From contig CAWJAS010000001.1 in the NCBI GenBank assembly GCA_963840935.1, forward strand, positions 645,834-704,789: a DNA stretch of 58,956 nt, read 5' to 3'. The translations under genes were made by a program, and so were the position numbers. Positions 17,418-35,123 of this stretch are shown here, in pieces (positions within the stretch are counted from its first letter, which is position 1; every line of letters starts with the position of its first letter). A model generated the notes under the pieces. It was not told where the DNA came from. It was given only the letters and a program-made list of their open reading frames with translations, and did no database searches. Origin of the DNA: Candidatus Magasanikiibacteriota bacterium. Its GTDB lineage: Bacteria; Patescibacteriota; Patescibacteriia; Magasanikbacterales; GWA2-37-8.

Positions 17418-17426
17418 GTATATCAG

Positions 17427-17461
17427 CTGAGATTGTTGCGGAGAGAGTCGCAACCATCTCA
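17427..17461 (-). repeat. Conserved 3'-UTR hairpin motif, copy 1 (CTGAGATTGT...GAGAGA...ACCATCTCA)
   Basis: The same ends, including the same internal mismatch, recur at 25308-25337. Both copies lie between the stop of a GC-rich lipoprotein gene and its terminator. Confidence 0.5.
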
Positions 17462-17514
17462 TGATGATAGCCTGCCTCGGAGAAACCCGAGGCAGGTTGA
17501 TAGGAATGAACGAA

Positions 17515-20500
17515 CTAGGGAGTGTATTCCGTGAGGAAACCCTCGGACAGGCACGACCGGTAGTTGACCGGGTCGGTCTCGTCGCAGAGAGGGTTACTCA
17601 GGCACTCTTCGTAGGAAGGAAGCGAAGCCCAGTCGGACTGATCGGTCAGACAGCACTCGGGGAGAGGCTGTTCGTCGGCGCAAGTGTCGGGCCACACACC
17701 GCAAAGCGGCATGGACACGCCATCTTCGTACTCCCACATGGCGGGAGACCAGTACTCGCAACCACCGTCGTCGTAGTTGTTGCAGGTGGTGTTGTCGGTG
17801 GAGCCGTCCTTGTCGGGATCGTAATCCCAGCAGAACAAGTACTCGCCGATTGCCGGTTCGGGAAGCGGATAGCAGACTCTCGAGTCGCGTCCGCAAACCT
17901 CACCATCCGCGCAGTCGGTTGCATCGATGCATTCGACGCAAACGTTATCCAAGCAAAGAAGGTCTCCGAGACAGTCATCATCAATCCAACACTCTTCGGG
18001 ATCAGTGTCCGAATCCGTGTCGGTGTCAGAGTCAGTATCGGAGTCCGTATCGGAATCCGTATCCGCGTCGGTGTCGGCATCCGTGTCGGCATCCGTGTCG
18101 GAATCCGTGTCGGAATCCGTATCCGCGTCGGTGTCGGCATCAGCGCCACCGTCCACGCCTCCATCCGTCTCACTGCAAGTCGATTCCGAATCGCAGTAGA
18201 GACCGTCGTCACAAGGATCGACCGGAGGAGAAGCGCACGGCTCGTCGAGTTCGCCGACGCAAGTGCCGAAGTCGCTCACGTTCTCGCAGATATAACCGCA
18301 ATCAACGCAAACCGGGTCGTCACTCACCATGGCGCAAATGCTGTTCGCGCCACAGAAGTCGAGGAATTCCGATTCACTCGTTACCGCGCCGTTGCAGATC
18401 GGCGAGGCACCACCGCAGAAACGATGGAACGTGAACCGAATCGGGTCGGCTCCACAGAGAACCCCGGTGCACTCATCGAACACAACGGAGTCGCATTCGT
18501 AAGAGCTATCGAGGAACTCATCGGCCGGGCAATACGGGCTAGACCCGTCACAATATTCATCCAAATCGCAGTCGCCTTCCGAAGGACGGCAAAGCGATCC
18601 GGAATCCAACGAATCGACGGGACAGCTCGCGGAAACACCGGTGCAATACTCGGTGAGATCACACTCACCTACCGCAGCACGGCACTCGGTGGTGTCCGGC
18701 AGGAACGAATCGTCCGGGCAGTCGCCCGCTCCGTCGCAGTACTCGTCCACGTCGCAAACGCCAGCCGAAGCATGGCAGATCACGGTGGTGGGCTCGTAGT
18801 TCGGGAGGCAGGTTCCCGCTCCGTCGCAGGTGTCGGCGCTGTCGCAGACATCGACGGTGGTATCACCGCAAGCGGTACCCGACGGCTCGAAGCCGTCGTC
18901 CGGGCAGTCAGCCGAGGAACCGGTGCAGAATTCGGCGACATCGCAGTCACCCACATCAGCACGGCACTCGGTGGTGTCCGGCAGGAACGAATCGTCCGGG
19001 CAGTCGCCCGCTCCGTCGCAGTACTCGTCCACGTCGCAAACGCCAGCCGAAGCATGGCAGATCACGGTGGTGGGCTCGTAGTTCGGGAGGCAGGTTCCCG
19101 CTCCGTCGCAGGTGTCGGCGCTGTCGCAGACATCGACGGTGGTATCACCGCAAGCGGTACCCGACGGCTCGAAGCCGTCGTCCGGGCAGTCAGCCGAGGA
19201 ACCGGTGCAGAATTCGGCGACATCGCAGTCACCCACATCAGCACGGCACTCGGTGGTGTCCGGCAGGAACGAATCGTCCGGGCAGTCGCCCGCTCCGTCG
19301 CAGTACTCGTCCACGTCGCAAACGCCAGCCGAAGCATGGCAGATCACGGTGGTGGGCTCGTAGTTCGGGAGGCAGGTTCCCGCTCCGTCGCAGGTGTCGG
19401 CGCTGTCGCAGACATCGACGGTGGTATCACCGCAAGCGGTACCCGACGGCTCGAAGCCGTCGTCCGGGCAGTCAGCCGAGGAACCGGTGCAGAATTCGGC
19501 GACATCGCAGTCACCCACATCAGCACGGCACTCGGTGGTGTCCGGCAGGAACGAATCGTCCGGGCAGTCGCCCGCTCCGTCGCAGTACTCGTCCACGTCG
19601 CAAACGCCAGCCGAAGCATGGCAGATCACGGTGGTGGGCTCGTAGTTCGGGAGGCAGGTTCCCGCTCCGTCGCAGGTGTCGGCGCTGTCGCAGACATCGA
19701 CGGTGGTATCACCGCAAGCGGTACCCGACGGCTCGAAGCCGTCGTCCGGGCAGTCAGCCGAGGAACCGGTGCAGAATTCGGCGACATCGCAGTCACCCAC
19801 ATCAGCACGGCACTCGGTGGTGTCCGGCAGGAACGAATCGTCCGGGCAGTCGCCCGCTCCGTCGCAGTACTCGTCCACGTCGCAAACGCCAGCCGAAGCA
19901 TGGCAGATCACGGTGGTGGGCTCGTAGTTCGGGAGGCAGGTTCCCGCTCCGTCGCAGGTGTCGGCGCTGTCGCAGACATCGACGGTGGTATCACCGCAAG
20001 CGGTACCCGACGGCTCGAAGCCGTCGTCCGGGCAGTCAGCCGAGGAACCGGTGCAGAATTCGGCGACATCGCAGTCACCCACATCAGCACGGCACTCGGT
20101 GGTGTCCGGCAGGAACGAATCGTCCGGGCAGTCGCCCGCTCCGTCGCAGTACTCGTCCACGTCGCAAACGCCAGCCGAAGCATGGCAGATCACGGTGGTG
20201 GGCTCGTAGTTCGGGAGGCAGGTTCCCGCTCCGTCGCAGGTGTCGGCGCTGTCGCAGACATCGACGGTGGTATCACCGCAAGCGGTACCCGACGGCTCGA
20301 AGCCGTCGTCCGGGCAGTCAGCCGAGGAACCGGTGCAGAATTCGGCGACATCGCAGTCACCCACATCAGCACGGCACTCGGTGGTGTCCGGCAGGAACGA
20401 ATCGTCCGGGCAGTCGCCCGCTCCGTCGCAGTACTCGTCCACGTCGCAAACGCCAGCCGAAGCATGGCAGATCACGGTGGTGGGCTCGTAGTTCGGGAGG

Positions 20501-23325
20501 CAGGTTCCCGCTCCGTCGCAGGTGTCGGCGCTGTCGCAGACATCGACGGTGGTATCACCGCAAGCGGTACCCGACGGCTCGAAGCCGTCGTCCGGGCAGT
20601 CAGCCGAGGAACCGGTGCAGAATTCGGCGACATCGCAGTCACCCACATCAGCACGGCACTCGGTGGTGTCCGGCAGGAACGAATCGTCCGGGCAGTCGCC
20701 CGCTCCGTCGCAGTACTCGTCCACGTCGCAAACGCCAGCCGAAGCATGGCAGATCACGGTGGTGGGCTCGTAGTTCGGGAGGCAGGTTCCCGCTCCGTCG
20801 CAGGTGTCGGCGCTGTCGCAGACATCGACGGTGGTATCACCGCAAGCGGTACCCGACGGCTCGAAGCCGTCGTCCGGGCAGTCAGCCGAGGAACCGGTGC
20901 AGAATTCGGCGACATCGCAGTCACCCACATCAGCACGGCACTCGGTGGTGTCCGGCAGGAACGAATCGTCCGGGCAGTCGCCCGCTCCGTCGCAGTACTC
21001 GTCCACGTCGCAAACGCCAGCCGAAGCATGGCAGATCACGGTGGTGGGCTCGTAGTTCGGGAGGCAGGTTCCCGCTCCGTCGCAGGTGTCGGCGCTGTCG
21101 CAGACATCGACGGTGGTATCACCGCAAGCGGTACCCGACGGCTCGAAGCCGTCGTCCGGGCAGTCAGCCGAGGAACCGGTGCAGAATTCGGCGACATCGC
21201 AGTCACCCACATCAGCACGGCACTCGGTGGTGTCCGGCAGGAACGAATCGTCCGGGCAGTCGCCCGCTCCGTCGCAGTACTCGTCCACGTCGCAAACGCC
21301 AGCCGAAGCATGGCAGATCACGGTGGTGGGCTCGTAGTTCGGGAGGCAGGTTCCCGCTCCGTCGCAGGTGTCGGCGCTGTCGCAGACATCGACGGTGGTA
21401 TCACCGCAAGCGGTACCCGACGGCTCGAAGCCGTCGTCCGGGCAGTCAGCCGAGGAACCGGTGCAGAATTCGGCGACATCGCAGTCACCCACATCAGCAC
21501 GGCACTCGGTGGTGTCCGGCAGGAACGAATCGTCCGGGCAGTCGCCCGCTCCGTCGCAGTACTCGTCCACGTCGCAAACGCCAGCCGAAGCATGGCAGAT
21601 CACGGTGGTGGGCTCGTAGTTCGGGAGGCAGGTTCCCGCTCCGTCGCAGGTGTCGGCGCTGTCGCAGACATCGACGGTCAGATCCCCGCAAGCGGTACCC
21701 GACGGCTCGAACAGTCCACCATCAGTGCAACATTCCGTTGCCGGGTCACACTGTGTGGCGCATTCTCCAACGCCTCCGGTTTCCACGCAACCGAACGCGC
21801 AATCGACGCAGGAAGCGTAGGTCGCGTTATCGGTCTCGCAGACCGAATCCATCGAGCAGGCGTCGATATCGGTCCAGCCGGAGCTGTTGATATCGCCGTC
21901 GCACGCATCGGAATCGCCGGCGCAGATCTGGAACAACACGTTCATTTGCGGAATTGCTCCGCACTCGGTACCGGTGCACTGGTACTCGGACCAGTTGTCG
22001 CAGACCGTACCGAAAGACAGGAACGTGCCGGTTGCGGTATCGCAACAGTCACCACTGGTGCACTGCGGATCCGTGTCCGTATCCGTGTCGGTGTCGGTAT
22101 CCGTATCGGTATCCGTATCGGTATCGGTGTCGGTATCGGTATCCGTATCGGTATCCGTATCGGTGTCGGTATCCGTGTCCGTATCCGTGTCGGTGTCGGT
22201 ATCCGTGTCCGTATCGGTATCCGTGTCCGTGTCGGCATCGCCACTTGACTGGCACTCGCCAACCAGACATCCGAACTCACAATCGTCGCACGTGGCGAAG
22301 GTTGAGATATCCGTTTCGCAAATGGCATCAACCGAGCAATCCTGAATGGTCACCCAGTCGCTCGAGAAGATCTCGCCATCGCAAAACTCGGAATCGCCGA
22401 CGCAGTACTGAACGTTGGCGCGCATCTGCGCGTCAGCTCCGCAATCACCTGACGAACACTGGAACTGAACCCAGCTATCGCAGGAATTCGAACTGTCCAT
22501 GAACGTTCCTGTTACGGTGTCGCAACAGTCGCCACTGGTACACTGCGGAGGGTCCGTATCCGTGTCGGTGTCCGTGTCGGTGTCCGTGTCGGTATCCGTA
22601 TCGGTGTCGGTATCCGTGTCGGTGTCGGTATCCGTGTCCGTATCGGTGTCCGTATCGGTGTCCGTGTCGGTGTCTGTATCGGTGTCCGTATCGGTGTCCG
22701 TGTCGGTGTCTGTATCGGTGTCCGTGTCGGTATCCGTGTCGGCATCACCGCCCACACAGAACGACTCGCTCAAGCAAGTCCCTCCTGTGGTGAACCCGTC
22801 CACGGCCGTACAGCACATGGCTATCGGGTAACGGATCGGGCAAGGGTCACCTGCCGGCTGGTAGGTCAGCAAGCACTCGGGCGTCGGGTCTGCGGTCGTC
22901 CAGATGTCTGGACTCCCGTACTCACACCCGTCGACAAAGACCTGTTCGCAAGAACCGCCGACAGTGAGCGAATCACCATCGTTGTCTTCGTCCCAGCAGA
23001 AGTTGGACTGGCCGGAGCCGGGCACGGGCATGTCGTAGCATGTGGTCGTGTCCACTCCGTAAACCTGTCCGTCGTCCGGACAGGCGACCGAAACGTCGTC
23101 GCAGATGAAATCGTACGGATCCGTGTCGGAATCCGTATCGGTGTCGGTATCGGTATCCGAATCGGTATCCGTGTCCGAATCCGCGTCGCTGTCGGAATCG
23201 GTATCCGAATCAGCGTCCACATCCGTTCCCTTGTACACCGACTGAGTGCTGTCGCCGGGATTCGGCGAAAGACACCCGGTCGCGCCCAAGAAAGCGCAAC
23301 AGACGAGCCAGAAAAACTTTCTCAT
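17515..23325 (-). CDS. Giant secreted lipoprotein with (Asp-Thr)n linkers and tandem disintegrin-like Cys-rich repeats
   Basis: 1936 aa. SD aaaggaggaaagaggaa precedes the ATG. Signal peptide plus lipobox MRKFFWLVCCAFLGATGC. Four D/T/S tracts, two CTSGDCCD domains, and 11 x 94-aa repeats containing CRADVGDCDVAEFCTGSSADCPDDGFEPSGTAC. GC3-rich codons on this strand. Confidence 0.9.
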   Translation of the reverse strand: MRKFFWLVCCAFLGATGCLSPNPGDSTQSVYKGTDVDADSDTDSDSDADSDTDTDSDTDTDTDTDSDTDPYDFICDDVSVACPDDGQVYGVDTTTCYDMPVPGSGQSNFCWDEDNDGDSLTVGGSCEQVFVDGCEYGSPDIWTTADPTPECLLTYQPAGDPCPIRYPIAMCCTAVDGFTTGGTCLSESFCVGGDADTDTDTDTDTDTDTDTDTDTDTDTDTDTDTDTDTDTDTDTDTDTDTDTDTDTDTDTDTDTDTDPPQCTSGDCCDTVTGTFMDSSNSCDSWVQFQCSSGDCGADAQMRANVQYCVGDSEFCDGEIFSSDWVTIQDCSVDAICETDISTFATCDDCEFGCLVGECQSSGDADTDTDTDTDTDTDTDTDTDTDTDTDTDTDTDTDTDTDTDTDTDTDTDTDTDTDTDPQCTSGDCCDTATGTFLSFGTVCDNWSEYQCTGTECGAIPQMNVLFQICAGDSDACDGDINSSGWTDIDACSMDSVCETDNATYASCVDCAFGCVETGGVGECATQCDPATECCTDGGLFEPSGTACGDLTVDVCDSADTCDGAGTCLPNYEPTTVICHASAGVCDVDEYCDGAGDCPDDSFLPDTTECRADVGDCDVAEFCTGSSADCPDDGFEPSGTACGDTTVDVCDSADTCDGAGTCLPNYEPTTVICHASAGVCDVDEYCDGAGDCPDDSFLPDTTECRADVGDCDVAEFCTGSSADCPDDGFEPSGTACGDTTVDVCDSADTCDGAGTCLPNYEPTTVICHASAGVCDVDEYCDGAGDCPDDSFLPDTTECRADVGDCDVAEFCTGSSADCPDDGFEPSGTACGDTTVDVCDSADTCDGAGTCLPNYEPTTVICHASAGVCDVDEYCDGAGDCPDDSFLPDTTECRADVGDCDVAEFCTGSSADCPDDGFEPSGTACGDTTVDVCDSADTCDGAGTCLPNYEPTTVICHASAGVCDVDEYCDGAGDCPDDSFLPDTTECRADVGDCDVAEFCTGSSADCPDDGFEPSGTACGDTTVDVCDSADTCDGAGTCLPNYEPTTVICHASAGVCDVDEYCDGAGDCPDDSFLPDTTECRADVGDCDVAEFCTGSSADCPDDGFEPSGTACGDTTVDVCDSADTCDGAGTCLPNYEPTTVICHASAGVCDVDEYCDGAGDCPDDSFLPDTTECRADVGDCDVAEFCTGSSADCPDDGFEPSGTACGDTTVDVCDSADTCDGAGTCLPNYEPTTVICHASAGVCDVDEYCDGAGDCPDDSFLPDTTECRADVGDCDVAEFCTGSSADCPDDGFEPSGTACGDTTVDVCDSADTCDGAGTCLPNYEPTTVICHASAGVCDVDEYCDGAGDCPDDSFLPDTTECRADVGDCDVAEFCTGSSADCPDDGFEPSGTACGDTTVDVCDSADTCDGAGTCLPNYEPTTVICHASAGVCDVDEYCDGAGDCPDDSFLPDTTECRADVGDCDVAEFCTGSSADCPDDGFEPSGTACGDTTVDVCDSADTCDGAGTCLPNYEPTTVICHASAGVCDVDEYCDGAGDCPDDSFLPDTTECRAAVGECDLTEYCTGVSASCPVDSLDSGSLCRPSEGDCDLDEYCDGSSPYCPADEFLDSSYECDSVVFDECTGVLCGADPIRFTFHRFCGGASPICNGAVTSESEFLDFCGANSICAMVSDDPVCVDCGYICENVSDFGTCVGELDEPCASPPVDPCDDGLYCDSESTCSETDGGVDGGADADTDADTDSDTDSDTDADTDADTDADTDSDTDSDTDSDTDTDSDTDPEECWIDDDCLGDLLCLDNVCVECIDATDCADGEVCGRDSRVCYPLPEPAIGEYLFCWDYDPDKDGSTDNTTCNNYDDGGCEYWSPAMWEYEDGVSMPLCGVWPDTCADEQPLPECCLTDQSDWASLPSYEECLSNPLCDETDPVNYRSCLSEGFLTEYTP
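18676..21711 (-). repeat. Perfect in-frame tandem repeat, 282-bp unit, about 10.8 copies
   Basis: The unit start agcacggcactcgg recurs at 18676 and 18958 (offset 282). The ORF track shows ten identical 91-aa and ten identical 83-aa shadow ORFs spaced exactly 282 nt. The last copy diverges after 21678. Confidence 0.95.
22067..22238 (-). repeat. (Asp-Thr)n coding tract (degenerate GAY-ACN hexamer repeat)
   Basis: Plus-strand gtccgt/atcggt/gtcggt iterations that translate as DTDTDT... on the minus strand. Approximate bounds. Confidence 0.85.
22550..22745 (-). repeat. (Asp-Thr)n coding tract, second long copy
   Basis: Same degenerate hexamer pattern, about 32 DT dipeptides. Approximate bounds. 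Confidence 0.85.
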
Positions 23326-23628
23326 TTCCTCTTTCCTCCTTTTGCATCATCACACTTGTTATAGGCAAACACGTATTTGCTCGCCTATTATTTCACTTCC
23401 TTCAATTTTCAAAGGACTTGTCATATTACTAAGCTCTATTCCGCTCGCGCAAAAAAAGCGCTACACGGCAGGGAGAGCAACCCTGTTTTCTTCCGGCAAA
23501 TTTTACCGAAAAAAAACAAAGCAAAAAACCAAAACATTTTTTGAGAGAGTTTTGGCTTATTTCTCGTAAATCAGCCGGCTCTCTCCCCTGCTAATTAATT
23601 GATTTTTACATCTTTATAATAACACTAA

Positions 23629-23657
23629 ATACTATCACTTTTACTCTAATTTGTCAA
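23629..23657 (-). promoter_or_regulatory. Sigma70-type promoter for the giant lipoprotein gene
   Basis: Minus strand: TTGACA (23657-23652), 17-nt spacer, TAGTAT (23634-23629). Confidence 0.55.
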
Positions 23658-23784
23658 TAGTTATAACGATTTTGTAATAAAATTATGACTTTGACGCGAA
23701 AACATAATGATTTAGCTTGTTTTAGCCAAAAAAATTCTACTTTAAGTAGAATTTTTTAGAACTTATTGATTATAATGACTCAAG

Positions 23785-24399
23785 TTAACTTTTTTTGTTC
23801 ATACCCGGCTTTTGTGAATTTATATTTCTCAAATTTCTGAAAGTTTCGTCATGACTTCCCTCTTCGATTTCCGTGCTGTTCAAATCATCGTCGAATTCAA
23901 TACCATCATAATCTAATGATTCGTTTTTAATTTTCTGTGATTTTGCCTGACTAATTACATCCCCCAACATATCCTTGTCATTCATAACAAGTGCCAATCC
24001 AATTTTATTGAATAATTCCGCGTGCAAATCGGGACGTATTTCTTCAAAAAAAGTTTGCGTGTGACCTTTAGCTTTTTTATACTTAAATATTCTTGCTAAA
24101 TTATTATATCTTTGAAATGTATCGGAAGATATATTGAAATTTTTTAATAATGTGTAAAATCCATTATCCATTGTAACCATCAATTTCTGTTCGGCAGTCA
24201 GTCCCCGCAAATATCTATCAGTAATTTTATTTTTTTGTTCTTGATAACGAGTGATTTCTTTTACAATCTCTAATTCACTAGAATTATCGCCCAATAATCG
24301 CATGCATCGAACTCCCGTCTCGGCCACATTATCGAGCATAACTTTATTATAAATTTTTATAGCTTCAATCAAATCGATAAACTTATAATTTTCCGGCAA
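23785..24399 (-). CDS. Hypothetical protein (AT-rich gene inside the island); frame is open upstream to the TAG of the preceding gene
   Basis: 204-aa ORF with a TTG start. The 28 codons upstream (DFSNYESDEEINFLSVTEEEGPAPRKIE) are in frame and stop-free back to the TAG at 24484-24486. Confidence 0.5.
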   Translation of the reverse strand: MPENYKFIDLIEAIKIYNKVMLDNVAETGVRCMRLLGDNSSELEIVKEITRYQEQKNKITDRYLRGLTAEQKLMVTMDNGFYTLLKNFNISSDTFQRYNNLARIFKYKKAKGHTQTFFEEIRPDLHAELFNKIGLALVMNDKDMLGDVISQAKSQKIKNESLDYDGIEFDDDLNSTEIEEGSHDETFRNLRNINSQKPGMNKKS

Positions 24400-24483
24400 T
24401 TCAATTTTTCTTGGCGCCGGACCCTCTTCTTCAGTAACCGACAGAAAATTAATTTCTTCGTCTGATTCGTAATTTGAAAAATC

Positions 24484-25203
24484 CTAAATCATTTTCTGAA
24501 ATAAATTATTGTAAATTGAATAAATAGTTCTAGCATCTCTTCTTGAATAGGCAGTTGACAAATCGTCAATGATATTTTTTATCTCTTCCGTTTCCAAAGC
24601 TTGGGTTCCCAAATTATCAATAATAATTTTTCTTGCCATCTCATTTGCTTTGTCATATAAAGCACCTTGGTCCATATCTTCCATGGTTTCTTGTTTTTTT
24701 ATAACATCAACCGCTAAAGGGTTTTCTTCCAGATAATCTTTATAATCTGATGGTAATGGATTAAAAGCATTCCCGGTTGCCGGAATCCTTTTTTTATATT
24801 TCGGTTCCTTAATTAATTCACGCAAAAGACCGGCTGACATTTTTAATAATACCAAATCATGTGTCGCCAATTTTTCTTTGGCTTCACGAACAATACGCTC
24901 AACATAATCGTCCATTTGCTCGGTCTCGTCTTTTTCTTGATGATCTGAATTAAGACCGGTTGCGCCTGCTTCCAATGAAACGGCGTTTAAACTAGAAGCC
25001 AACAAAACACCGGCAATCCAAGCTTTCCATTTTGTACCAATCTCTGGCAAAAATTCTTTTTTATTATTATCGCCTGATGCTCGACTGACTAAATCAAGGG
25101 TTTCATTTCTTGAAACTTCAAAAGTTGTATCTACAATTTGCCTCCCAACACTTTTTTTGGTTGCAAATATTTCAGCGTTATTTATGCTTTTTCCTTCCCG
25201 CAT
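24484..25203 (-). CDS. Hypothetical single-pass membrane protein (AT-rich gene inside the island)
   Basis: 239 aa with one hydrophobic segment, WKAWIAGVLLASSLNAVSL. No SD. Confidence 0.5.
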   Translation of the reverse strand: MREGKSINNAEIFATKKSVGRQIVDTTFEVSRNETLDLVSRASGDNNKKEFLPEIGTKWKAWIAGVLLASSLNAVSLEAGATGLNSDHQEKDETEQMDDYVERIVREAKEKLATHDLVLLKMSAGLLRELIKEPKYKKRIPATGNAFNPLPSDYKDYLEENPLAVDVIKKQETMEDMDQGALYDKANEMARKIIIDNLGTQALETEEIKNIIDDLSTAYSRRDARTIYSIYNNLFQKMI

Positions 25204-25296: not shown

Positions 25297-25307
25297 CTTT
25301 GATTCAT

Positions 25308-27137: not shown

Positions 27138-28169
27138 CTAGAACGTGCCGCCAATGGTGACGAGTACGGACCAGCCGAGGTCCCAGCTCCGCTCGGTGCG
27201 GAATGGGTAACCCGGAATGGGGGCATCCTCGATGTGGGTCGAGGTCCCGATTCCGGCGAGAACGGACAGGAAGCCATGCTCGGTGAAGTAGAAGCTGAAC
27301 TCGGGTCCGCCTCCGATGAAGGAGCTACCCTTGTCGTTCATCTCCTCCTTCAAGTAGAGCGCGGTCACCCCGACGGCGAGGTTCTTCTTCTCGCCGAAAA
27401 CGAACTCGGGACCAGCCTGGCCAACGAGCATCGCTTCCCCGTCGAACGTGACGCCGATGCCGGCATGGATCTTCGCCCGGACGATATTTGTGTCCGTAAT
27501 GGCGAAATTCAGACCGAGGACACCCGCCACGCCGTAAATGTCCGAAGACAACACGAGGGTGGCGCCGACGTCGAACCGGACCTTCTGGCCCATCTTGATG
27601 ATGAGCGCGTCGTGCTCGTCCACCCGGCGCTCCAGAATGGTGATCCGCTCGTCGTGCTCGTTCAACCGTGCGTCGTGCACGGCATCCTTACGCTCACCGA
27701 CATCCGCCCTGTCCTTGAGGGTGGCGATGTCCGCCTCAGCGGCGTCCATGCGCCCCTCCAGGTCGGCGATCCTCTTCTCGAGCTCCCCGAGCTTCAAGAA
27801 AATCTCGTCCCTGAGCGCCTCCAGGTCGTCCTTGCTCGCCAGGTTCTTGAGCGCCAGAGCGATCTGGCGCTTCACCCAGCCAGCTCCGACGCCGGGACGG
27901 GCCTTGGCCTTCTCGTACGTGTCGCCACAGGGCCCGTAGGCCTTGCGACACCTGTCCGAGGGACCGTTCCCACAGTTGACGATGAGCTGCCCGATGCAGG
28001 CGTTCGCCTCGCGGAGCAGGACTTTGTCGGCCTGTGCCTCGTGCTTGGTGGCCAGCGAGGAGGGCGTGTAGTACGACCCATCCTCGACCACGGTCGCCCA
28101 CTGGGCCGAAGCCGAGTTGACGAAAACGAGGGTAGCGACGATCACGATGGAAACGATGAACTTCTTCAT
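27138..28169 (-). CDS. Secreted coiled-coil protein with C-terminal 8-strand beta-barrel-like domain ending in Phe (module 1, gene 1)
   Basis: 343 aa. Signal peptide ...VFVNSASA/QW. Heptad-rich region LEALRDEIFLKLGELEKRIADLEGRMDAAEADIATLKD. Eight alternating hydrophobic strands ending in LVTIGGTF. SD ggagg. Confidence 0.8.
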   Translation of the reverse strand: MKKFIVSIVIVATLVFVNSASAQWATVVEDGSYYTPSSLATKHEAQADKVLLREANACIGQLIVNCGNGPSDRCRKAYGPCGDTYEKAKARPGVGAGWVKRQIALALKNLASKDDLEALRDEIFLKLGELEKRIADLEGRMDAAEADIATLKDRADVGERKDAVHDARLNEHDERITILERRVDEHDALIIKMGQKVRFDVGATLVLSSDIYGVAGVLGLNFAITDTNIVRAKIHAGIGVTFDGEAMLVGQAGPEFVFGEKKNLAVGVTALYLKEEMNDKGSSFIGGGPEFSFYFTEHGFLSVLAGIGTSTHIEDAPIPGYPFRTERSWDLGWSVLVTIGGTF

Positions 28170-28350
28170 TTTGTCCTCCGTTCTCGCGCATCGCGCGAGC
28201 GCGAATTGCGAGCCGTTGGTTTCTTCATTTTTTACCTACCTTTTATATTTTAAAGAGCGATTTCAGAGTTTTTTGCTCTGTTTGCGCCCGCTCTTGATTT
28301 GAGGCACAAAGTAAAGCAAATTACTACAAGCTTATTTAATTTAACAGATT

Positions 28351-28379
28351 AGTATATCATATTTTAGCACTTTTGTCAA
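28351..28379 (-). promoter_or_regulatory. Sigma70-type promoter (proximal) for module 1
   Basis: Minus strand: TTGACA (28379-28374), 17-nt spacer, TATACT (28356-28351). Confidence 0.55.
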
Positions 28380-28537
28380 TAGCCCGCTAAAACATTATTT
28401 TTTTGCTATAAAAAGCAAAAATCTCTCCTTTTGAGAGAGTTTTCGCCAATAAACACGGTAAAATGCCTTGTTTATTGGTTTTGGCTACGCCTCTCTCAAA
28501 CGTTGGCCAATTTATTGAGTTTTCAATTACGAGAAAT

Positions 28538-28566
28538 ATTATACCACATTGGTATGATTTTGTCAA
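28538..28566 (-). promoter_or_regulatory. Sigma70-type promoter (distal, inside left arm of the inverted repeat)
   Basis: Minus strand: GGGGGG-TTGACA (28566-28561), 17-nt spacer, TATAAT (28543-28538). Confidence 0.55.
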
Positions 28567-28678
28567 CCCCCCACCACTTTTGACCGAATATCAATAAAAT
28601 TAAATTAAACATTATTGCAATTAATAATTTAGTAATAATTAAGGATTCTTTACTAAAAGTGGTGGGGGGTTGACAAAA
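28558..28678. repeat. Perfect 24-nt inverted repeat carrying two divergent -35 boxes
   Basis: TTTTGTCAACCCCCCACCACTTTT (28558-28581) is the exact reverse complement of AAAAGTGGTGGGGGGTTGACAAAA (28655-28678). The 73-nt spacer is AT-rich. Confidence 0.9.
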
Positions 28679-28698
28679 GTGAAAAAAAGTGATATAGT
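28670..28698 (+). promoter_or_regulatory. Sigma70-type promoter for the plus-strand gene at 28817
   Basis: TTGACA (28670-28675), 17-nt spacer, TATAGT (28693-28698). Confidence 0.55.
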
Positions 28699-28816
28699 AA
28701 TATGTTAAAAAAATGATGATATAGATATTGTTTTTTGACCTAAAATCGTCAATTGTGGCGATTTTAAAAAGAAAATAAATAGAGCAAAGAAAGCTCTTTG
28801 AAAAGAGGAGGAGAAG

Positions 28817-29456
28817 ATGGCCGTAGCAAGAAGGAACCCTCGTCGTGGTAACCAGAACCAGCAACAGGCACCCGCCCCGGCTCCGGCTCCGCCGGCTCCC
28901 CCTCAGCCTCAACCGGCTCCGGTGGCTCCGGTTCAGCCCCCCGCCCCCGTGGCACCGCCCCCGGCTCCTCCGCCGGCTCCCAGGCCGGCAACGCCCAGGA
29001 CCGCGGTCGAGTTGGCCGCCATGCGTTTGATTGGGCGTGGCGAGGAGATGCTCGAGGAGGCGGAACGGCGCGACAACGCGCGCCGGATCGAGCTGGAAGA
29101 AGCCGAGCGTCGGCGTCAGGCTTTCTGGCGCACCGTACGGATGGTGGTCGGAAATCTTGATTCTCATCGGAATCGCCGTCATGGTGACCATGTTCATCAT
29201 GGCGACCCCGACGCCCCCGGCTTCCCCACCCCCGTCGCCCGTGGTCATCACGACCACCCAGCCCACCCCCACGAACATCAACATCATCTGCGGATGTGAT
29301 GATGACGAGCTCTGCATCCCCTGTACCACGGAGGAATGCCTCCAAGGAAACAGGGTCATGACCGTGAGCTCGGCCGAGGCATGTTGCCGGGCGATTCCGG
29401 ATGAGAAAGAAAAGCAGCGCTGTCTCAACATGATCAAAGTTCTCAAACGGCGCTAG
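28817..29456 (+). pseudogene. Pro-rich / coiled-coil / single-TM / Cys-rich C-terminal domain protein, needs a +1 shift near 29130-29140
   Basis: SD gaggaggag precedes the ATG at 28817, which starts the frame MAVARRNPRRGNQ...(AP-rich)...EEAERRRQAFWRTV. Downstream, the GC3-rich frame is that of ORF 29031..29456 (GWWSEILILIGIAVMVTMFIMATPTPP...CGCDDDELCIPCTTEECL...). The His-rich tail of the first frame has T-rich third positions. Confidence 0.6.
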
Positions 29457-29488
29457 TCCAACTCATCACTCCTTTCGTTCTTTCCTCG

Positions 29489-29519
29489 ACCCGTCAGTGT
29501 CCAACTGACGGGTTTTTTT
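29489..29519 (+). terminator. Rho-independent terminator
   Basis: acccgtcag-tgtccaa-ctgacgggt followed by ttttttt. Confidence 0.7.
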
Positions 29520-29674
29520 ATTCCGTCGCATATTAATTTTTTAAATTATTGTTATAAGCAACGTCGCGGAGCCGTTCATGAACGACGGGATAAATAAAAC
29601 CCGTCAGTCGCGACTGACGGGTTAAAAAGGGGCAACCGCAATGGTTGCCCCTCGTAAGTTAACAAAAAAGAAAA

Positions 29675-31063
29675 TTACTCTTCCAAATCCACCAAATAGG
29701 TGTAAAAGCTCTCGCCGACGCAGGGCCGTTCATCCCAAGAATACTCCGCGAAATCGGAGTCCTCGGTGACACAGCACTCGGGCTCGGGTTCGATCTCTCC
29801 ACCACAATCGATGGGATAGGACTCGCAGAGCGGGGTTGCGGTTTCGGGATCGTATTCCCAAATGGCCGGCGACCACATGTCACACTCGTCGAACGACTCC
29901 ATGTCGCAGGTGCCGCCCTCGGTCGTGTCGTCTCCGTCGCCGTCCTTGTCCCAGCACATCATGTACTCTCCCTCTTCCAGGGTCGGAAGCGGATAGCACT
30001 CGTGGCTGATCTTCCCGCAAACGTATCCGTCCGGGCAATCCTCGGCCGATTCGCACTCGGCTCCGGCATCACCGTCTCCGGCATCCGGACCGGCGTCGTC
30101 GTCGAGACCACCGTCCATTTCCGACTCGGTATCGGTTTCCGTGTCCGTATCCGTGTCGGAATCCGAATCTGTGTCAGCATCGCTGTCCGCGTCACCACCG
30201 TCGGCTCCGCCGTCAATATCCGACTCGGTGTCGGTATCGCTATCAGAGTCCGTGTCGGCGTCGGTGTCCGTGTCGGCGTCGGTGTCCGTGTCGGCGTCCG
30301 TGTCCGTATCCGAATCGGTGTCGGTATCGGAGTCGGAGTCGCTGTCGCTATCGGAGTCCGTGTCGGTATCCGTGTCCGTGTCCGAATCGGTGTCAGTATC
30401 GGAGTCGGTGTCCGTGTCGATGTCCGTGTCCGTATCCGTGTCGGTATCGGCGTCGGTGTCCGTGTCGGTGTCCGTGTCCGTATCCGTGTCGGTATCGGCG
30501 TCCGCTGAAGCGCAGTATCCGGTCCCGTCGCTGTGGAACAGACATCCGAATTCGCAATGAACGCAAGTGTTACTTGCGTAATCGCAAATATCGTCCGGAC
30601 CACAGGATTCCCATTCGACCAGAGGAATTTCCACCAGATCACCACCTACGCACGAGGCGCTATCACCCGTACAGTACTCTTCCACCAAATAGAGGTACTT
30701 GCCACCACCACATGACGGTTCTACACCGCAGTGAATGGTATAACTCTCACCGCATACTTCGGTCGGCATTTTGAAGTGACCGAAAGCATCACAGCAAGGA
30801 CCGCTGGAACAATCGGTATCCGTATCCGTGTCCGAATCGGTGTCGGTGTCGGTGTCCGTGTCGGTATCCGTATCCGTGTCCGAATCGGTGTCGGTGTCGG
30901 TGTCCGTGTCGGTATCCGTGTCCGTGTCCGAATCGGTGTCGGTGTCGGCATCGCCGTCGGGAATTCCGAAAACGGACTGGTTGGGGTCGCCCAGGTTGGG
31001 CGACAGACATCCGGCGATGAAGGCGACGAAAACGAAAACCACGAAAACGAAGTTCTTCGTCAT
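29675..31063 (-). CDS. Acidic (Asp-Thr)n Cys-rich lipoprotein, paralogue of the giant lipoprotein (module 2, gene 2)
   Basis: The ATG at 31063 has SD gaggagagag. MTKNFVFVVFVFVAFIAGCLSPNLGDPNQSV matches the giant protein N-terminus GCLSPNPGDSTQSV. It has one CSSGPCCD domain, long DT tracts, and a C-terminal CWDKDGDGDD...MWSPAIWEY...ECC domain shared with 17515..23325. Confidence 0.85.
   Translation of the reverse strand: MTKNFVFVVFVFVAFIAGCLSPNLGDPNQSVFGIPDGDADTDTDSDTDTDTDTDTDTDTDSDTDTDTDTDTDTDTDSDTDTDTDCSSGPCCDAFGHFKMPTEVCGESYTIHCGVEPSCGGGKYLYLVEEYCTGDSASCVGGDLVEIPLVEWESCGPDDICDYASNTCVHCEFGCLFHSDGTGYCASADADTDTDTDTDTDTDTDADTDTDTDTDIDTDTDSDTDTDSDTDTDTDTDSDSDSDSDSDTDTDSDTDTDADTDTDADTDTDADTDSDSDTDTESDIDGGADGGDADSDADTDSDSDTDTDTETDTESEMDGGLDDDAGPDAGDGDAGAECESAEDCPDGYVCGKISHECYPLPTLEEGEYMMCWDKDGDGDDTTEGGTCDMESFDECDMWSPAIWEYDPETATPLCESYPIDCGGEIEPEPECCVTEDSDFAEYSWDERPCVGESFYTYLVDLEE
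30120..30505 (-). repeat. (Asp-Thr/Ser/Ala)n coding tract
   Basis: Degenerate gtc-ngt / atc-ngt hexamers on the plus strand. Approximate bounds. A second tract lies at about 30813-30957. Confidence 0.8.
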
Positions 31064-31325: not shown

Positions 31326-32747
31326 TCAGAAAAAGAGAGAGACGGACACACCGCCCATGGGAACGAACTCCCCGGACAGCCGTTGGTTGTCGTAGGTGGC
31401 ACCGGGAATGAGTCCTTCGGGCGGGTCGGCCGTGACCCAAGCGTACTCGTACGCCGGACCGATGAAACCCTCGATGCCGAGGTTCAATTCCTTGGTCAGA
31501 GGAATGACACCTCGGATGAAAGCTCCACCGCCATATCCTAATTCGTCGTTGAACGGCATGTTCGCGCCGTAGGTGGCCAAGTAAAGCCCTCCCCAGATGT
31601 AGCGATGGAACTCGTACCCGAACTTGATTCGGGTGTCGAACATAAATTCCACCGGACTGTCGTCGAGAGCGAGCCCAATCGCGCCGGACAAACCGACACG
31701 AACCTTGGCCTTCCTGATCCAGTAGGTCCCCTCGAGCATCATGCCCATGATAGCCGGGCTGAACTGCCCGACCAGGCCGACTTCGAGGAGACCCAAATCC
31801 TGCTTCTGCGAAGCGAGCGCATAGGCGGACTCGGCCACCTTCTTGGCACCCTTGGCCTCGGCTTCGGCTTCGTTTACCGCTTCCTCAGCGGCATCCACCT
31901 TGGCGCGAAGCTCGGCGAGCTCCGTGGGGTCGATGGGTTCTCCGGCCTCTGCCTTGGCTTCGGCCTTGGCCAGAGCTTCCTCGGCGATTGCCTTGGCTTC
32001 ATCGGCCTTCCGGCCCGCCACATCGGCACGGCCCTGGGCATCGCCCGCGGCTTCCGCCACCTTCACCAAATCGCTCTGACTCGCACCGCCTCCGCCGTTC
32101 GCCTTGGCTTCCTCTGCCGTGGCCTTGGCTTCTTCGGCCAGTGCCTTGGCTTCGTTCGCCGTGGCCTGAGCTACCGTCGCTCGGCGGGAAATGGAAATCG
32201 CATCGTCCACGGATACCTCACCACCGTCTCCGCTTCCGGTGACGACTGATTCGAGTATCACAATTCGGCCTTCGTGGTCCTGGTGCCCGGCTTCGAGCTT
32301 GTCCACTCTTCCTTCGATGGACGAAACGCGATCCGCGAGGGCGTTGAGCCCCTCGACTTGGCCTGCTGCCGCCATCGGAATCGCCTTGTTGATCATCCGG
32401 CTCACCTGAGCCCGCTGGGCCGGAGTGAGTTTCGCCGCTTTCGGGTTCTCCGCGGGCTTGTCCAGCTTGTCGGCATCGACCACCGCCCGACCACAGTCGG
32501 GAGAATCGGGGTTCTTGCACTCCTCGGCCAAGGCTCTGACGGCCTGGGTGAGACCGACGACGCTGTAGGCGAGCATCATGTCTCTCAACTGACCGGCCTC
32601 TTCGACATCGTCGCTCGCCTTCTGCGAAACGACGGTCTGCGGAGTGGAAACAGCGCCCGGAGTGTAGTACTCCTCGGCCATCACGGAACCGGAAAATGCG
32701 AACACGAACAACGCGAAAGCGCAAATCGTAACGACGAAATTCTTCAT
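31326..32747 (-). CDS. Secreted coiled-coil protein with C-terminal 8-strand beta-barrel-like domain ending in Phe-Phe (module 2, gene 1)
   Basis: 473 aa. Signal peptide ...FSGSVMA/EE. YYTP motif shared with 27138..28169. Long A/E/K coiled coil. Alternating strands ending in GGVSVSLFF. SD gaggac. Confidence 0.8.
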   Translation of the reverse strand: MKNFVVTICAFALFVFAFSGSVMAEEYYTPGAVSTPQTVVSQKASDDVEEAGQLRDMMLAYSVVGLTQAVRALAEECKNPDSPDCGRAVVDADKLDKPAENPKAAKLTPAQRAQVSRMINKAIPMAAAGQVEGLNALADRVSSIEGRVDKLEAGHQDHEGRIVILESVVTGSGDGGEVSVDDAISISRRATVAQATANEAKALAEEAKATAEEAKANGGGGASQSDLVKVAEAAGDAQGRADVAGRKADEAKAIAEEALAKAEAKAEAGEPIDPTELAELRAKVDAAEEAVNEAEAEAKGAKKVAESAYALASQKQDLGLLEVGLVGQFSPAIMGMMLEGTYWIRKAKVRVGLSGAIGLALDDSPVEFMFDTRIKFGYEFHRYIWGGLYLATYGANMPFNDELGYGGGAFIRGVIPLTKELNLGIEGFIGPAYEYAWVTADPPEGLIPGATYDNQRLSGEFVPMGGVSVSLFF

Positions 32748-32968
32748 CTTTGTCCTCTTCTTTCTTTTTCTCGCGCTTATCTCAAACGCGTTTTTTTATC
32801 AAAGAACTTTTTTGCTTGCGTTCTATTTAAACACCCGAATTAGATCGGATGATTGTTTTAGAACGCAATATATACTTCCTCACGATTCCCGAAAAATCAG
32901 GAATCAAGTTGGAAGGGAAACGGCCGGAATTGACCGTTTCCCGAATAGGTAGGTAAAAACTACTGTGA

Positions 32969-33766
32969 CTACTGTGGAAGATTGCCGTGCAACCGCAACT
33001 GGGTGACCGTACTCATGCCGACGCACTTGGCGATTTCTTCCACATCGCCGGCGTTGCCGAGCACGAGACAGCAGTGAAGCGCGTCGAGTTCCGGCGGAGC
33101 CGGACTGATTTCGGGGAAGCAATCCCCGGACGACCTGGGCACACGCTTGCCCATGACGATATCGGCCAAGGGCCCATTCGGGTCCTCGGGCGTCCAGCCG
33201 AGCGGTCCATCGACCAGCGGTTCCATCCTGGTAAGGACGTCTACCGCGGTGAACTGAACCGTTCCGGCTTCCTTCGCCGGCATCGGCTTGCCGTCGACGG
33301 GAGCCTTCTCGATGTCGGTCACCATCGTCGTCGACTCGGCCGGGACATTGCCCGCGGGATTCTTTATGATGAGCATGAAGCCGATGATGAAGAAGAAAAG
33401 AAGGGCGAAAACAGCGACCACCTTGACCGCGAGCGATGTTTTGCGTTCTTCCTGTTTCTTCTCCTCCTTCGGCAGGGGCGGGGGCGTCGGCGGAGCCGTG
33501 TTGTCAGGCACGGTCTCGGGCTTCACCTCGGGCAGATCCACCTCGAGGGGAACGGTCTGCGCCACGTGGCGCGAAGCCTTGTCGTCGTCGGCCACGACCG
33601 CCTTCTCGGCGTTGGGGTCAACGGACGCTTCGTCGCCGGGGGCAACCGGCTCTTCGGACACGACTTCCGGCGAGGTGTTCACCTCACCGCCGTCCGTATC
33701 CGCGCCCGTGTCACCTTGCGAAACCGGCAGTTCCACTGTCGGCGCTTTCATATCGTTCTCGGTCAT
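32969..33766 (-). CDS. Single-pass membrane protein with acidic/Pro-rich N-terminal region
   Basis: The ATG at 33766 is preceded by aaaggaggcaag. TM segment VKVVAVFALLFFFIIGFMLII. The track start at 33904 overlaps the FHA gene and lacks an RBS. Confidence 0.65.
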   Translation of the reverse strand: MTENDMKAPTVELPVSQGDTGADTDGGEVNTSPEVVSEEPVAPGDEASVDPNAEKAVVADDDKASRHVAQTVPLEVDLPEVKPETVPDNTAPPTPPPLPKEEKKQEERKTSLAVKVVAVFALLFFFIIGFMLIIKNPAGNVPAESTTMVTDIEKAPVDGKPMPAKEAGTVQFTAVDVLTRMEPLVDGPLGWTPEDPNGPLADIVMGKRVPRSSGDCFPEISPAPPELDALHCCLVLGNAGDVEEIAKCVGMSTVTQLRLHGNLPQ

Positions 33767-33896
33767 CTTGCCTCCTTTTCGGGGCGACGCACCGGGCGCC
33801 GGCGCGCGTTTGGGTTTCTTGGAATCACTGAAAAAAATCGAAATCTTGTCATTGCCCAAAAAGAGTTTGTCCGCATGGAGCAGTTCGTACCATGCG

Positions 33897-34979
33897 TCAC
33901 TCAAGACTTCTCACTCCATTGACGTAAGTTCCATTCAACGACTCACAGTCGCAAATGAAACAGTCATCGCCGTCTCGCTTGATCATGGCGTGCCGAGCCG
34001 AAACTGACTCCTCGGACTTATCAACCACCACATCGCACATGGGCGATCTGCCGATAACGATGGTGTCGCCATCCGCAAGCGGACAACGAACCATTCCGTA
34101 GTTGTCGAGCTGAATCAAGAAAGGAGCCCCGTCCTCGGCCTGGGAATTCGGGAACCGTTCCCAAATCCTGGCCGCTCTCTGAACGGAAATCCTCATCTTC
34201 ATAGTCGGCATTTCATCAGAAGCGAGCGGTGAAGGAGGAGGAGACAAGGTCGGAATGTCATCCGGGGAAGGAGAACCTTTCTCATCCATTCCCCAACTGT
34301 CTTCCACTTTTGCCTCCGGCTCCACTGGTTTCGGCAGATCCACCTCGTCTTTCGCCTGTTTGATGACTTCTTCGGTGGTCAGAGCGCGGTCTTCCTCGCC
34401 ATCGGCGTCACCGCCGTTGTCAGAATCCGCATCATCGCCGACTGTCGCCGTCGCCGTGGCAACCTCGGTTTCACCCGTCTCAACAACTTGAGTGGGCTCA
34501 TCCTCGGAATCTTCCGAGTCGTGGCTTGATTCCACGACAATGGGGTCGCCTTCCGCTGGCTGGGTGGTTTCTTCACCCGAATCCGGACCCTCGAAAGTGT
34601 TCTCAAGAGAAGAACCGTCATCTTCCATGCGAAGGATGTAACCGCTCAAACGAGCGGCTTCTTCCTTTTCTTCATCGGAAAGAGGCGGAGGCGCGACACT
34701 GGTTCGCACCGCTTCCGCCATCTGCGGATCACCCTCTTCTTCGAGGGTCTGCGCCACTCTCTCGGCCATGGCCATTCGCGACGCGCGAGGCGTCGTCTCC
34801 GGCCTTCTCGGCATGATCGGCGCCGAGAGAGTCGTCGGTGGCGCAGGCGGTGGAAGAGTTCCTCCCCTTACCGTCGAATAGTCTTCACTATCTTCGGCAG
34901 AGGGATTATCCCCTGCACCAAACACCGGAGTACTGCCGTACATTTTGGTCGGCAGTTTCTCTCTTGGTTTATCGCCCAT
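33897..34979 (-). CDS. FHA-domain protein with long disordered acidic N-terminal region
   Basis: C-terminal VIGRSPMCDVVVDKSEESVSARHAMIKRDGDDCFICDCESLNGTYVNG fits the FHA signature (GR...S..H...D..S.NGT.vNG). SD aggag. Confidence 0.75.
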   Translation of the reverse strand: MGDKPREKLPTKMYGSTPVFGAGDNPSAEDSEDYSTVRGGTLPPPAPPTTLSAPIMPRRPETTPRASRMAMAERVAQTLEEEGDPQMAEAVRTSVAPPPLSDEEKEEAARLSGYILRMEDDGSSLENTFEGPDSGEETTQPAEGDPIVVESSHDSEDSEDEPTQVVETGETEVATATATVGDDADSDNGGDADGEEDRALTTEEVIKQAKDEVDLPKPVEPEAKVEDSWGMDEKGSPSPDDIPTLSPPPSPLASDEMPTMKMRISVQRAARIWERFPNSQAEDGAPFLIQLDNYGMVRCPLADGDTIVIGRSPMCDVVVDKSEESVSARHAMIKRDGDDCFICDCESLNGTYVNGVRSLE

Positions 34980-35070
34980 TATTTTCTCCTGTTTCTACTC
35001 CTTCCTTGGGAGTTTTTTGTGTTTTTACCTAAGTTTTAAAGAACTTATGCTTTAATAAGCATAACAGAGA

Positions 35071-35099
35071 AATATAGCATAAATCTTCATTTTTGTCAA
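35071..35099 (-). promoter_or_regulatory. Sigma70-type promoter for the FHA operon
   Basis: Minus strand: TTGACA (35099-35094), 17-nt spacer, TATATT (35076-35071). Confidence 0.55.
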
Positions 35100-35123
35100 T
35101 AGCTTAACGCTTTTCTTAATAAA

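Follow-up and report, generated by a model that had tools for sequence, protein, structure and literature searches.

The locus considered here lies in a 58,956-nucleotide stretch (the window) of a 770,905-bp contig from a Candidatus Magasanikiibacteriota bacterium, in which a cluster of genes between positions 17420 and 35110 is markedly richer in G+C than both the surrounding genome and the spacers that separate the genes. It raises the question of whether such genes are foreign open reading frames (ORFs) or ORFs under an unusual compositional constraint, two alternatives that the original prediction had left side by side. The second is favoured by the analysis, in that the genes are conserved in the related lineages and a substitution regime maintains their GC content. 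We are highly confident that the locus is native and conserved and that its GC is maintained. The best explanation overall, which we consider probable, is a native seven-gene envelope cluster that encodes a surface apparatus and has its GC kept by a fixation bias on the coding mRNA; that the force on GC is selection on the translated mRNA is put forward tentatively, at somewhat less than an even chance.

The GC content of 17420–35110 is 0.561, as compared with 0.400 for the other 41 kb (the flanks), and 84% of the 500-nt windows inside the region lie above the richest flank window (0.484). Individual cluster genes have a GC content of 0.57–0.68 and a G+C fraction at third codon positions (GC3) of 0.58–0.86, with the corresponding values for the ~25 flank genes checked being 0.35–0.43 and 0.32–0.45, respectively. 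The spacers inside the region are AT-rich (GC 0.28–0.49), and a further gene within it (23785–25203) has a GC3 of 0.27–0.30, which is under the genome average. The mosaic described originally is thus real, and the hand counts given with it (41/60, 22/60, and 15/60) were reproduced exactly. Codon usage flips as had been claimed, with the fractions of Lys AAG (0.79 versus 0.13), Ile ATC (0.66 versus 0.16), and Phe TTC (0.92 versus 0.15) all far higher in the cluster than in the flanks, and the same is seen for CAG (0.90 versus 0.19). The Gly, Ala, and Arg codon fractions in the cluster are the host's own, unlike those of a GC-rich genome, which argues against foreign ORFs.

The region contains seven cluster genes, rather than the eight coding sequences (CDS) first counted, since the FHA gene (32969–34979) is cut in two by a 1-nt insertion at ~33900–33905, inside the FHA domain, leaving pieces at 33897–34979 and 32969–33904. 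The seven genes encode an FHA membrane protein, two secreted coiled-coil/predicted-barrel proteins, three stalked Cys-rich lipoproteins, and a small single-pass membrane protein. What had been taken for two ordinary AT-rich genes at 23785–25203 is one gene with an in-frame TAG; a second assembly, of the same strain type, has it whole (472 aa), and it is missing in the related loci L001 and L095–L098 (see below). As it is intact in one assembly and absent from the other relatives, this gene is a lineage-specific insertion, outside the GC-rich set.

The GC boundaries are sharp (<100 nt) and coincide with translation limits. Over the first 25 codons, GC3 is already 0.72–0.84 in the five signal-peptide genes and is 0.48–0.60 in the two FHA pieces and the small protein; in the former five, the GC switch therefore lies at the start codon and not at the promoter. 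The FHA, 343-aa, small, and 1,936-aa genes have near-consensus sigma-70-type promoters with an extended −10 element, a hairpin terminator follows every cluster gene, and each gene is predicted to be its own transcription unit, with a conserved AT-rich promoter/leader and a terminator. The native-type promoters originally proposed for the spacers are supported, as the near-consensus TTGACA-17-TATAAT arrangement is conserved across relatives. The 5′ leaders (85 to ~300 nt) are AT-rich, even though the predicted promoters place them within the same transcripts as the GC-rich CDS, and a translation-tied cause is therefore favoured. Only the translated parts are GC-rich, and this state is held whatever the background composition.

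The locus in related lineages

Loci of related lineages (L001, L095, L096, L097, and L098) were compared with the window, the nearer ones having been found via homologues of the 473-aa coiled-coil/barrel protein (the 47x family) and the more distant ones via a profile search of 1.84 billion protein representatives. The cluster occupies the same locus in 8/8 related lineages fetched, with no empty site or patchy presence. The shared order begins upstream with SmpB, proteins of 266 and ~365 aa, DUF5663, and proteins of ~60 and ~1,500 aa, and continues through the cluster with the FHA protein, 47x, a stalked lipoprotein, the small opposite-strand protein, the second coiled-coil protein, and two stalked Cys-rich lipoproteins. 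This cluster order recurs in every relative spanning the locus, and Wzy_C forms the far end wherever the locus extends that far (the window, L001, L095, and L098). L095 is the most divergent, with a rearranged middle, no FHA domain call, and an extra methyltransferase gene; this is an insert of background composition, different from that in the window and at another position.

A GC3 excess of +0.2 to +0.45, locked to the CDS, is shared by no fewer than six Patescibacteria lineages close to Magasanikbacteria, all of them deeply diverged. Cluster GC3 is 0.58–0.86 over a background of 0.32–0.45 in the window, 0.73–0.84 over 0.36–0.40 in L001, 0.64–0.77 over 0.42–0.55 in L095, 0.66–0.91 over 0.51–0.60 in L096, 0.67–0.81 over 0.33–0.47 in L097, and 0.65–0.83 over 0.33–0.45 in L098, and the spacers of the relatives have a GC content of 0.34–0.53. 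The 47x proteins of the window and L095–L097 are only 28–31% identical; the same order and the same GC3 excess at this distance exclude misassembly and recent transfer. Between the window and L001, 36–59% of four-fold sites in conserved codons differ, in cluster and flank alike; the cluster and its flanks have thus diverged together, and the synonymous sites are close to being saturated. Protein identity is 40–79% for the cluster genes versus 61–90% for the flank genes. The prospect, raised at the outset, that relatives would show an ordinary conserved locus was half right: the locus is conserved, but its orthologues are equally anomalous in composition.

An assembly chimera, or contamination by the DNA of a GC-rich organism, would account for the extreme composition contrast and for the nonsense codon and the two frameshifts that the region contains, and short-read assemblies often break in the repeat-rich lipoprotein genes, those of the relatives stopping or having gaps inside the stalked ones. 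However, the GC/AT junctions on both sides and the internal order recur in independent assemblies (JGI, Logan, ENA, and NCBI) from different samples and pipelines, contigs of 0.28–0.73 Mb included, and the cluster spacers co-evolve with the cluster. The junctions are therefore real, the claim that no single chimeric join is involved stands, and a chimera is extremely unlikely.

The distribution of the proteins likewise does not bear out foreign ORFs, nor does the finding that, in six lineages or more, the cluster keeps its synteny with the flanks and has diverged along with them. Only two of the 13 representatives of the 47x family among 1.84 billion proteins carry organism names, both being "Patescibacteria group bacterium", and all five representatives with fetched loci (P0005, P0086, P0088, P0090, and P0100) are at the same locus type. 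A scan of GTDB genomes with the 47x alignment gave no match, its patterns being of low complexity, and metagenome scans with the 1,622-aa and 47x alignments found nothing. A word-based search of 5.8e9 proteins gave no relative of the lipoprotein C-terminal domain.

The cluster resembles genomic islands in its atypical GC and codon usage, its surface-protein cargo, and its sharp borders at terminators, both of which are present as first described. Also as first described, there is no integrase or transposase (Pfam scans of the cluster and flanks) and no border tRNA, the nearest tRNA/transfer-messenger RNA (tmRNA) being 8–10 kb away; border repeats are absent. Further differences from islands are the presence of the same locus, co-diverged with its flanks, in every relative examined, the native AT-rich regulatory spacers, and a GC content that is maintained and not ameliorating.

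Substitution and context at third positions

Substitutions at synonymous third positions were counted in five taxa, using only 4:1 singleton patterns. In the cluster, changes from A/T to G/C (W>S) were found at 24 of 37 AT sites and the reverse (S>W) at 46 of 154 GC sites, giving an implied equilibrium GC3 of 0.68, whereas in the flanks the counts were 166/594 and 97/191, respectively, with an implied equilibrium of 0.35. Per site, W>S is thus 2.3-fold higher in the cluster than in the flanks (Fisher p = 8e-6) and S>W is 0.59-fold (Fisher p = 1e-4). A parsimony artefact from skewed composition would act against the observed difference, and a smaller count restricted to four-fold sites agrees with it. 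The raised W>S and lowered S>W rates indicate a gene-specific substitution regime in which GC-richness is maintained.

These rates bear on the idea that the cluster was acquired long ago by horizontal transfer, its donor being GC-rich (Myxococcota-like, for example), and that the present GC is a slowly ameliorating relic. The combination of lipobox, (D-T/S)n stalk, and Cys-rich head is seen in matches to the 509-aa lipoprotein, which are weak and driven by stalk and repeats only, several of them labelled Deltaproteobacteria, Myxococcota, or Polyangium; disintegrin-like modules are unusual in bacteria, and the excess of S>W over W>S events in the cluster is in the direction that such a relic predicts. 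A relic is nevertheless difficult to reconcile with the same excess in six lineages whose orthologues are 28–31% identical and whose synonymous sites are saturated, with the 2.3-fold W>S fixation, and with the host-like Gly, Ala, and Arg codons. It is also at odds with the absence of mobility genes, with a C-terminal domain that has no relative among the proteins searched, and with the 47x family, of which both named representatives are Patescibacteria and none maps outside this locus type. We therefore consider an ancient transfer decidedly unlikely.

The composition of third positions was further compared according to neighbouring bases. Across five lineages, the logit shift in third-position G/C between cluster and background is 1.6–2.6 where the first two bases of the codon are A/T, 0.8–2.5 where they are mixed, and ~0 (−0.03 to 0.7) where they are G/C. 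Background third-position G/C tracks all neighbours, the first base of the next codon included, and runs from 0.17 (A/T) to 0.83 (G/C) in five lineages; this neighbour dependence of the background genes is a strong effect by itself. In the cluster, third positions stay at 0.6–0.9 G/C regardless of neighbours (0.77–0.91 with A/T on both sides), and cluster and background converge in GC-rich contexts in 5/5 lineages tested. Composition is thus GC-rich and independent of context in the cluster, and dependent on context in the background. The dependence on the first two bases is not evidence of selection on codon-anticodon strength, since the base that follows the codon has an equal influence in the background; the pattern therefore stems from the background and cannot separate codon-level from nucleotide-level causes. 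Codon selection, selection on mRNA GC, and a mutational regime are left on an equal footing by the context pattern, which disfavours a simple additive bias such as uniform GC-biased gene conversion (gBGC).

Under gBGC, a recombination hot spot, arising from surface-antigen exchange or from repeats, would raise GC through biased repair. Both the increase in W>S and the decrease in S>W are what it predicts, the surface genes evolve fast relative to the flank genes, and internal repeats are many, the near-identical 282-nt units of the 1,936-aa lipoprotein gene showing ongoing conversion or expansion. Against this, the shift is locked to start and stop codons, and the 200–650-nt spacers and the whole inserted gene are AT-rich, the spacers being constrained (80–82% column identity in five lineages, more than at adjacent synonymous sites). 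Moreover, the 343-aa, 473-aa, and FHA genes are equally GC-rich without repeats, and a uniform bias predicts a constant logit shift, not one that goes from ~0 in GC contexts to 2.6 in AT contexts. Taken together, these data make gBGC unlikely.

The neighbour dependence of the background, extending as it does to the next codon, is a nucleotide-level effect, and could point to a local, self-sustaining mutational regime (micro-isochores) in which GC-rich coding DNA is less AT-damaged, for example by cytosine deamination in breathing DNA, or is repaired differently, with no selection. The agreement of cluster and background values in GC-rich contexts and the lower S>W rate of the cluster are in keeping with this. 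The W>S rate is raised as well, however, third positions between A/T neighbours remain GC-rich in the cluster, and the boundaries are sharp and fall at translation limits, and such a regime is very unlikely.

The reading that we prefer is that of a vertically inherited cluster, in a small-genome lineage of the Patescibacteria (Candidate Phyla Radiation, CPR) near Magasanikbacteria, in which a fixation bias on the coding part of the cluster mRNAs would keep the GC excess. Candidate causes would be codon choice, or an effect of GC on how transcripts for abundant exported envelope proteins are elongated or on how stable they are. Like a codon class of highly expressed genes, the shift is limited to CDS and synonymous sites, NNC codons are preferred in two-fold families, and several genes have near-consensus promoters and long leaders. 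Unlike such a class, the shift is far larger (ΔGC3 up to +0.45), includes the G-ending Lys, Glu, and Gln codons, and is not shared by L20 and IF3 in the window.

Several observations weigh against the preferred reading. L20 and IF3, which are presumably highly expressed, are without bias (third-position G/C in AT-rich codons of 0.32–0.33 versus 0.81 in the cluster), and codon selection of the ordinary, expression-linked kind thus does not fit. An Akashi-type accuracy test was marginal (odds ratio 1.22, Z = 2.0, with pseudo-replicated taxa), A/T runs were not depleted beyond codon usage in a synonymous-shuffle test of low power, and the GC difference between the cytoplasmic and external halves of the FHA protein, taken as a test of a link to export, was inconsistent across lineages. 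S>W events outnumber W>S events in the cluster (46 versus 24), so some slow net loss of GC is possible. A foreign origin of the three stalked lipoproteins before the radiation of the clade is conceivable, but it would not explain their present composition. The comparison covers ~20–60 kb per genome, and other genes may share the GC regime. Finally, three genes of this 17.7-kb region are broken here, namely the inserted AT-rich gene and two cluster genes, FHA and the small membrane protein, with pseudogenisation, phase variation, or errors in the consensus as conceivable causes; in the 41-kb flanks, which were not checked systematically, breaks as obvious as these were not noticed. Two distant lipoprotein look-alikes, from an archaeal metagenome-assembled genome (MAG) and from a GC-rich contig, show no composition anomaly in their contexts, and the effect is therefore not general to such proteins.

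It is further conceivable, although doubtful, that the cluster represents a second, context-independent regime of G/C-ending codons for one envelope/attachment regulon, including OmpM-like tethers, that is kept by translational selection. Such a regime might serve codon-biased control or error-proofing of the translation of exported proteins.

Gene products and other features

The products were proposed originally to be envelope, secreted, or signalling proteins, and this holds as a prediction (Pfam, NCBIfam, AlphaFold2 (AF2), and Foldseek); they may jointly form a surface layer, envelope, or attachment apparatus. The features of the region are listed in Table 1.

Table 1. Positions of genes, control regions, and RNA-like or repeat elements between the two border terminators
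Feature	Position	Strand	Remarks
Bidirectional intrinsic terminator, left border	17393..17417	.	CCCGCC-loop-GGCGGG, T-runs on both strands; read from sequence
1,936-aa lipoprotein, GC3 0.74	17515..23325	-	signal peptide, lipobox ATGC, several (D-T/S)n acidic tracts, Cys-rich modules
Tandem repeat array, 10.9 copies of a 282-nt (94-aa) unit, 99% match	18637..21711	-	~three disintegrin-like Cys modules per unit
AT-rich control region 5′ of the 1,936-aa gene	23326..23784	-	predicted promoter 23657-23629 and small-RNA-like element ~23625-23510
AT-rich gene, GC3 0.27-0.30	23785..25203	-	in-frame TAG at 24484-24486
509-aa lipoprotein, GC3 0.84	25410..26939	-	lipobox VSAC, (D-A/S/T)n stalk, repeated ~42-aa Cys-rich modules
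343-aa secreted protein, GC3 0.86	27138..28169	-	signal peptide, coiled coil, beta-rich C-terminal domain with terminal Phe
Divergent AT-rich control region	28170..28816	.	predicted promoters (-)28379-28351, (-)28566-28538, (+)28670-28698; inverted repeat; small-RNA-like unit
Small membrane protein	28817..29456	+	cytoplasmic helix, one membrane segment, Pro-rich linker, Cys-containing C-terminal domain
Two convergent intrinsic terminators, small gene/462-aa lipoprotein gene	29488..29623	.	
462-aa lipoprotein, GC3 0.67	29675..31063	-	lipobox IAGC, long (D-T/S)n tracts, Cys-rich domain
473-aa secreted protein, GC3 0.73	31326..32747	-	signal peptide, ~270 aa of helices/coiled coil, predicted 8-stranded beta-barrel 320-472, terminal Phe
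Nested hairpin in the leader of the 473-aa gene	32816..32868	-	outer 10-bp helix, compensatory changes
FHA-domain membrane protein	32969..34979	-	disordered N terminus, FHA, linker, one membrane segment, Cys-containing C-terminal domain
Promoter of the FHA gene	35071..35099	-	near-consensus TTGACA-17-TATATT with TG; unchanged across five lineages
Right-border terminator, belonging to the AT-rich 1,622-aa gene upstream	35129..35155	-	

The three lipoproteins carry, in their translations, a signal peptide that closes with a lipobox of the form [LVIA]-[ASTVI]-[GAS]-C, as do their orthologues. The 1,936-aa and 462-aa lipoproteins have N- and C-terminal domains in common, the C-terminal domains being 42% identical. 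The former contains ~33 disintegrin-like modules and matches Pfam Disintegrin (PF00200) in 12 stretches (E = 4e-78, 258.6 bits, cut-off 35.1); a full-length match with the Cys framework was not found, the best stretch covering profile positions 48–75 of 75, and the snake-venom disintegrin-like domains in PDB entries 3dsl and 2dw0 match the repeat modules (E ~2e-4) over the ECD-loop half only. The module ECRA..(D/E)CD.AE.CTG.S..CP.D.F aligns with the loop of SVMP domains, and differs from ADAM/SVMP proteins in that only the last third of the Pfam model is present and the metalloproteinase domain is absent. The L001 orthologue of this lipoprotein has 783 aa and that of L098 at least 540 aa, and thus the copy number of the 282-nt repeat changes fast. 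At the repeat level only, the (D-T/S)n tracts resemble the SD-repeat stalks of MSCRAMMs (Sdr/Clf): two of the lipoproteins score 54–102 bits against SdrC/SdrD/ClfA/ClfB models with NCBIfam cut-offs of 999–2500, the acidic tracts alone matching, and their anchor is a lipobox and not LPXTG.

The FHA domain (PF00498) scores 52.9 bits against a gathering cut-off of 20.7, and the FHA protein is unbroken in relatives (584–741 aa). The small gene on the + strand is frameshifted near 29128–29145, its downstream frame encoding the membrane segment and Cys domain known from relatives, in which the protein has 173–270 aa.

The 473-aa and 343-aa proteins are distant paralogues. An AF2 model of the 473-aa protein from a 10-sequence alignment comprises helices at 47–314 followed by eight strands at 320–472, with a predicted local distance difference test score (pLDDT) of 72–91 in the barrel; an earlier model from five sequences (pLDDT 51) was unusable. 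All top Foldseek matches of the later model are 8-stranded outer-membrane barrels (NspA, OmpW, OmpX, Ail, and the OprF N-domain), at a TM score of ~0.55 and a best E of 4.5e-4 (NspA) for a model built from only 10 sequences. The 47x family members mostly end in Phe or Trp. An outer-membrane-type 8-stranded barrel with a C-terminal aromatic residue is thus predicted (31326–32747 and 27138–28169) in a presumed single-membrane group, and no BamA/Bam or lipopolysaccharide genes were seen within the window. To our knowledge, CPR bacteria are taken to lack an outer membrane. Their envelope is not known from cryo-electron tomography, as judged from the literature on the SlpA/OmpM (Omp-alpha/Omp-beta) tethers of Terrabacteria (PMC10160955, PMC10628300, PMC9388160), in which signal peptide, coiled coil, and barrel are combined, as may be the case in the proteins predicted here; unlike these tethers, the proteins have no SLH domain (Pfam), and their barrel is predicted with 8 strands, as in NspA/OmpX/OmpW. 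Large extracellular proteins of Peribacteria, which are strain-variable, have been proposed for attachment and show weak similarity to Myxococcus Cys-rich repeats (PMC4736985). Like the cluster products, they bear signal peptides and are Cys-rich; their domain content is different, and no compositional anomaly was reported for them in a genome of 58.5% GC throughout (PMC4736985).

Among the non-coding elements, the hairpin in the leader of the 47x gene has a 10-bp outer helix that is 100% paired in eight sequences, with double changes at six pairs, and it is kept in lineages with only 28–31% protein identity. It is a candidate cis-regulatory RNA. Two paralogous small-RNA-like units (28410–28530 and 23510–23625, both on the − strand) each lie 3′ of a near-consensus promoter and end in GAGAGAG...AAAACTCTCTCAAAA and a T-run, with a clear terminator hairpin in the 28.4-kb copy; both are kept in the equivalent spacers of L001 (14236–14365 and ~17690–17800). 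A 24-nt perfect inverted repeat at 28558–28680 (TTTTGTCAACCCCCCACCACTTTT / AAAAGTGGTGGGGGGTTGACAAAA) has its arms ~70 nt apart, and two divergent consensus promoters have their −35 boxes in these arms, one in each. In Rfam 15, the window matches only tmRNA and tRNA-Asp, with nothing credible at E ≤ 1 in 23.3–35.2 kb. Long ORFs antisense to the GC-rich genes (17461–22248, 25374–26966, and 27234–28253, all on the + strand, and others; reaching 1,595 aa) result from GC-richness and repeats and are not genes, and some automatic gene calls in relatives (for example, L095 13880–15382) look like wrong-strand calls.

The flanks hold housekeeping genes (MurB, MurC, LigA, BipA, a PEP synthase/PPDK-type enzyme, CysRS, IF3, L20, SmpB, and tmRNA) and type IV pilus genes. 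No GTDB species representative has a BipA more than 79% identical to the one encoded here, the top matches being Candidatus Magasanikbacteria and "Patescibacteria group" MAGs. The tmRNA (43085–43482) has an unusually long predicted tag peptide (ANLFNKVKASVARAFSPAMSFAPVAA). An AT-rich block (35176–42519) precedes the cluster in every lineage and encodes proteins of 266 and ~365 aa, DUF5663, a ~60-aa protein, and a coiled-coil protein of 1,437–1,622 aa with membrane segments; it has no Pfam annotation except DUF5663, and may act together with the cluster.

Precedent and significance

A partial precedent is found in Mycoplasma pneumoniae and M. genitalium, in which the adhesin operons (P1/ORF6 with RepMP and MgPa with MgPar, respectively) are GC-richer than the genome. 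These, too, are adhesin genes markedly richer in GC than the genome of a reduced-genome, host-attached bacterium, and the excess there is linked to dispersed copies of repeats, with which the expressed gene recombines. In the present cluster, such copies are not known, the bias extends to genes without repeats, and conservation is far deeper. The figure given in one paper on the Mycoplasma precedent is the genome average of 40% GC, and not the GC of the operon. No description of a CDS-locked, clade-wide GC regime was found in the searchable literature.

A native, vertically inherited cluster that has stayed 16–25 GC points off its genome over deep time would be mislabelled by composition-based calling of foreign DNA, or split from its bin in metagenome binning. 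With six lineages as replicates on different backgrounds, it offers a test case for selection versus biased conversion versus local mutation at synonymous sites, in tiny genomes of the kind where codon selection is assumed to be weak. Furthermore, a conserved surface set that combines predicted outer-membrane-type barrels with disintegrin-like modules bears on how the CPR envelope is built and how these bacteria attach to their hosts. If the OmpM-like tethers were real, these bacteria, supposedly bounded by a single membrane, would have an outer layer that has gone unrecognised, or else the barrels would insert into the membrane of a host cell.

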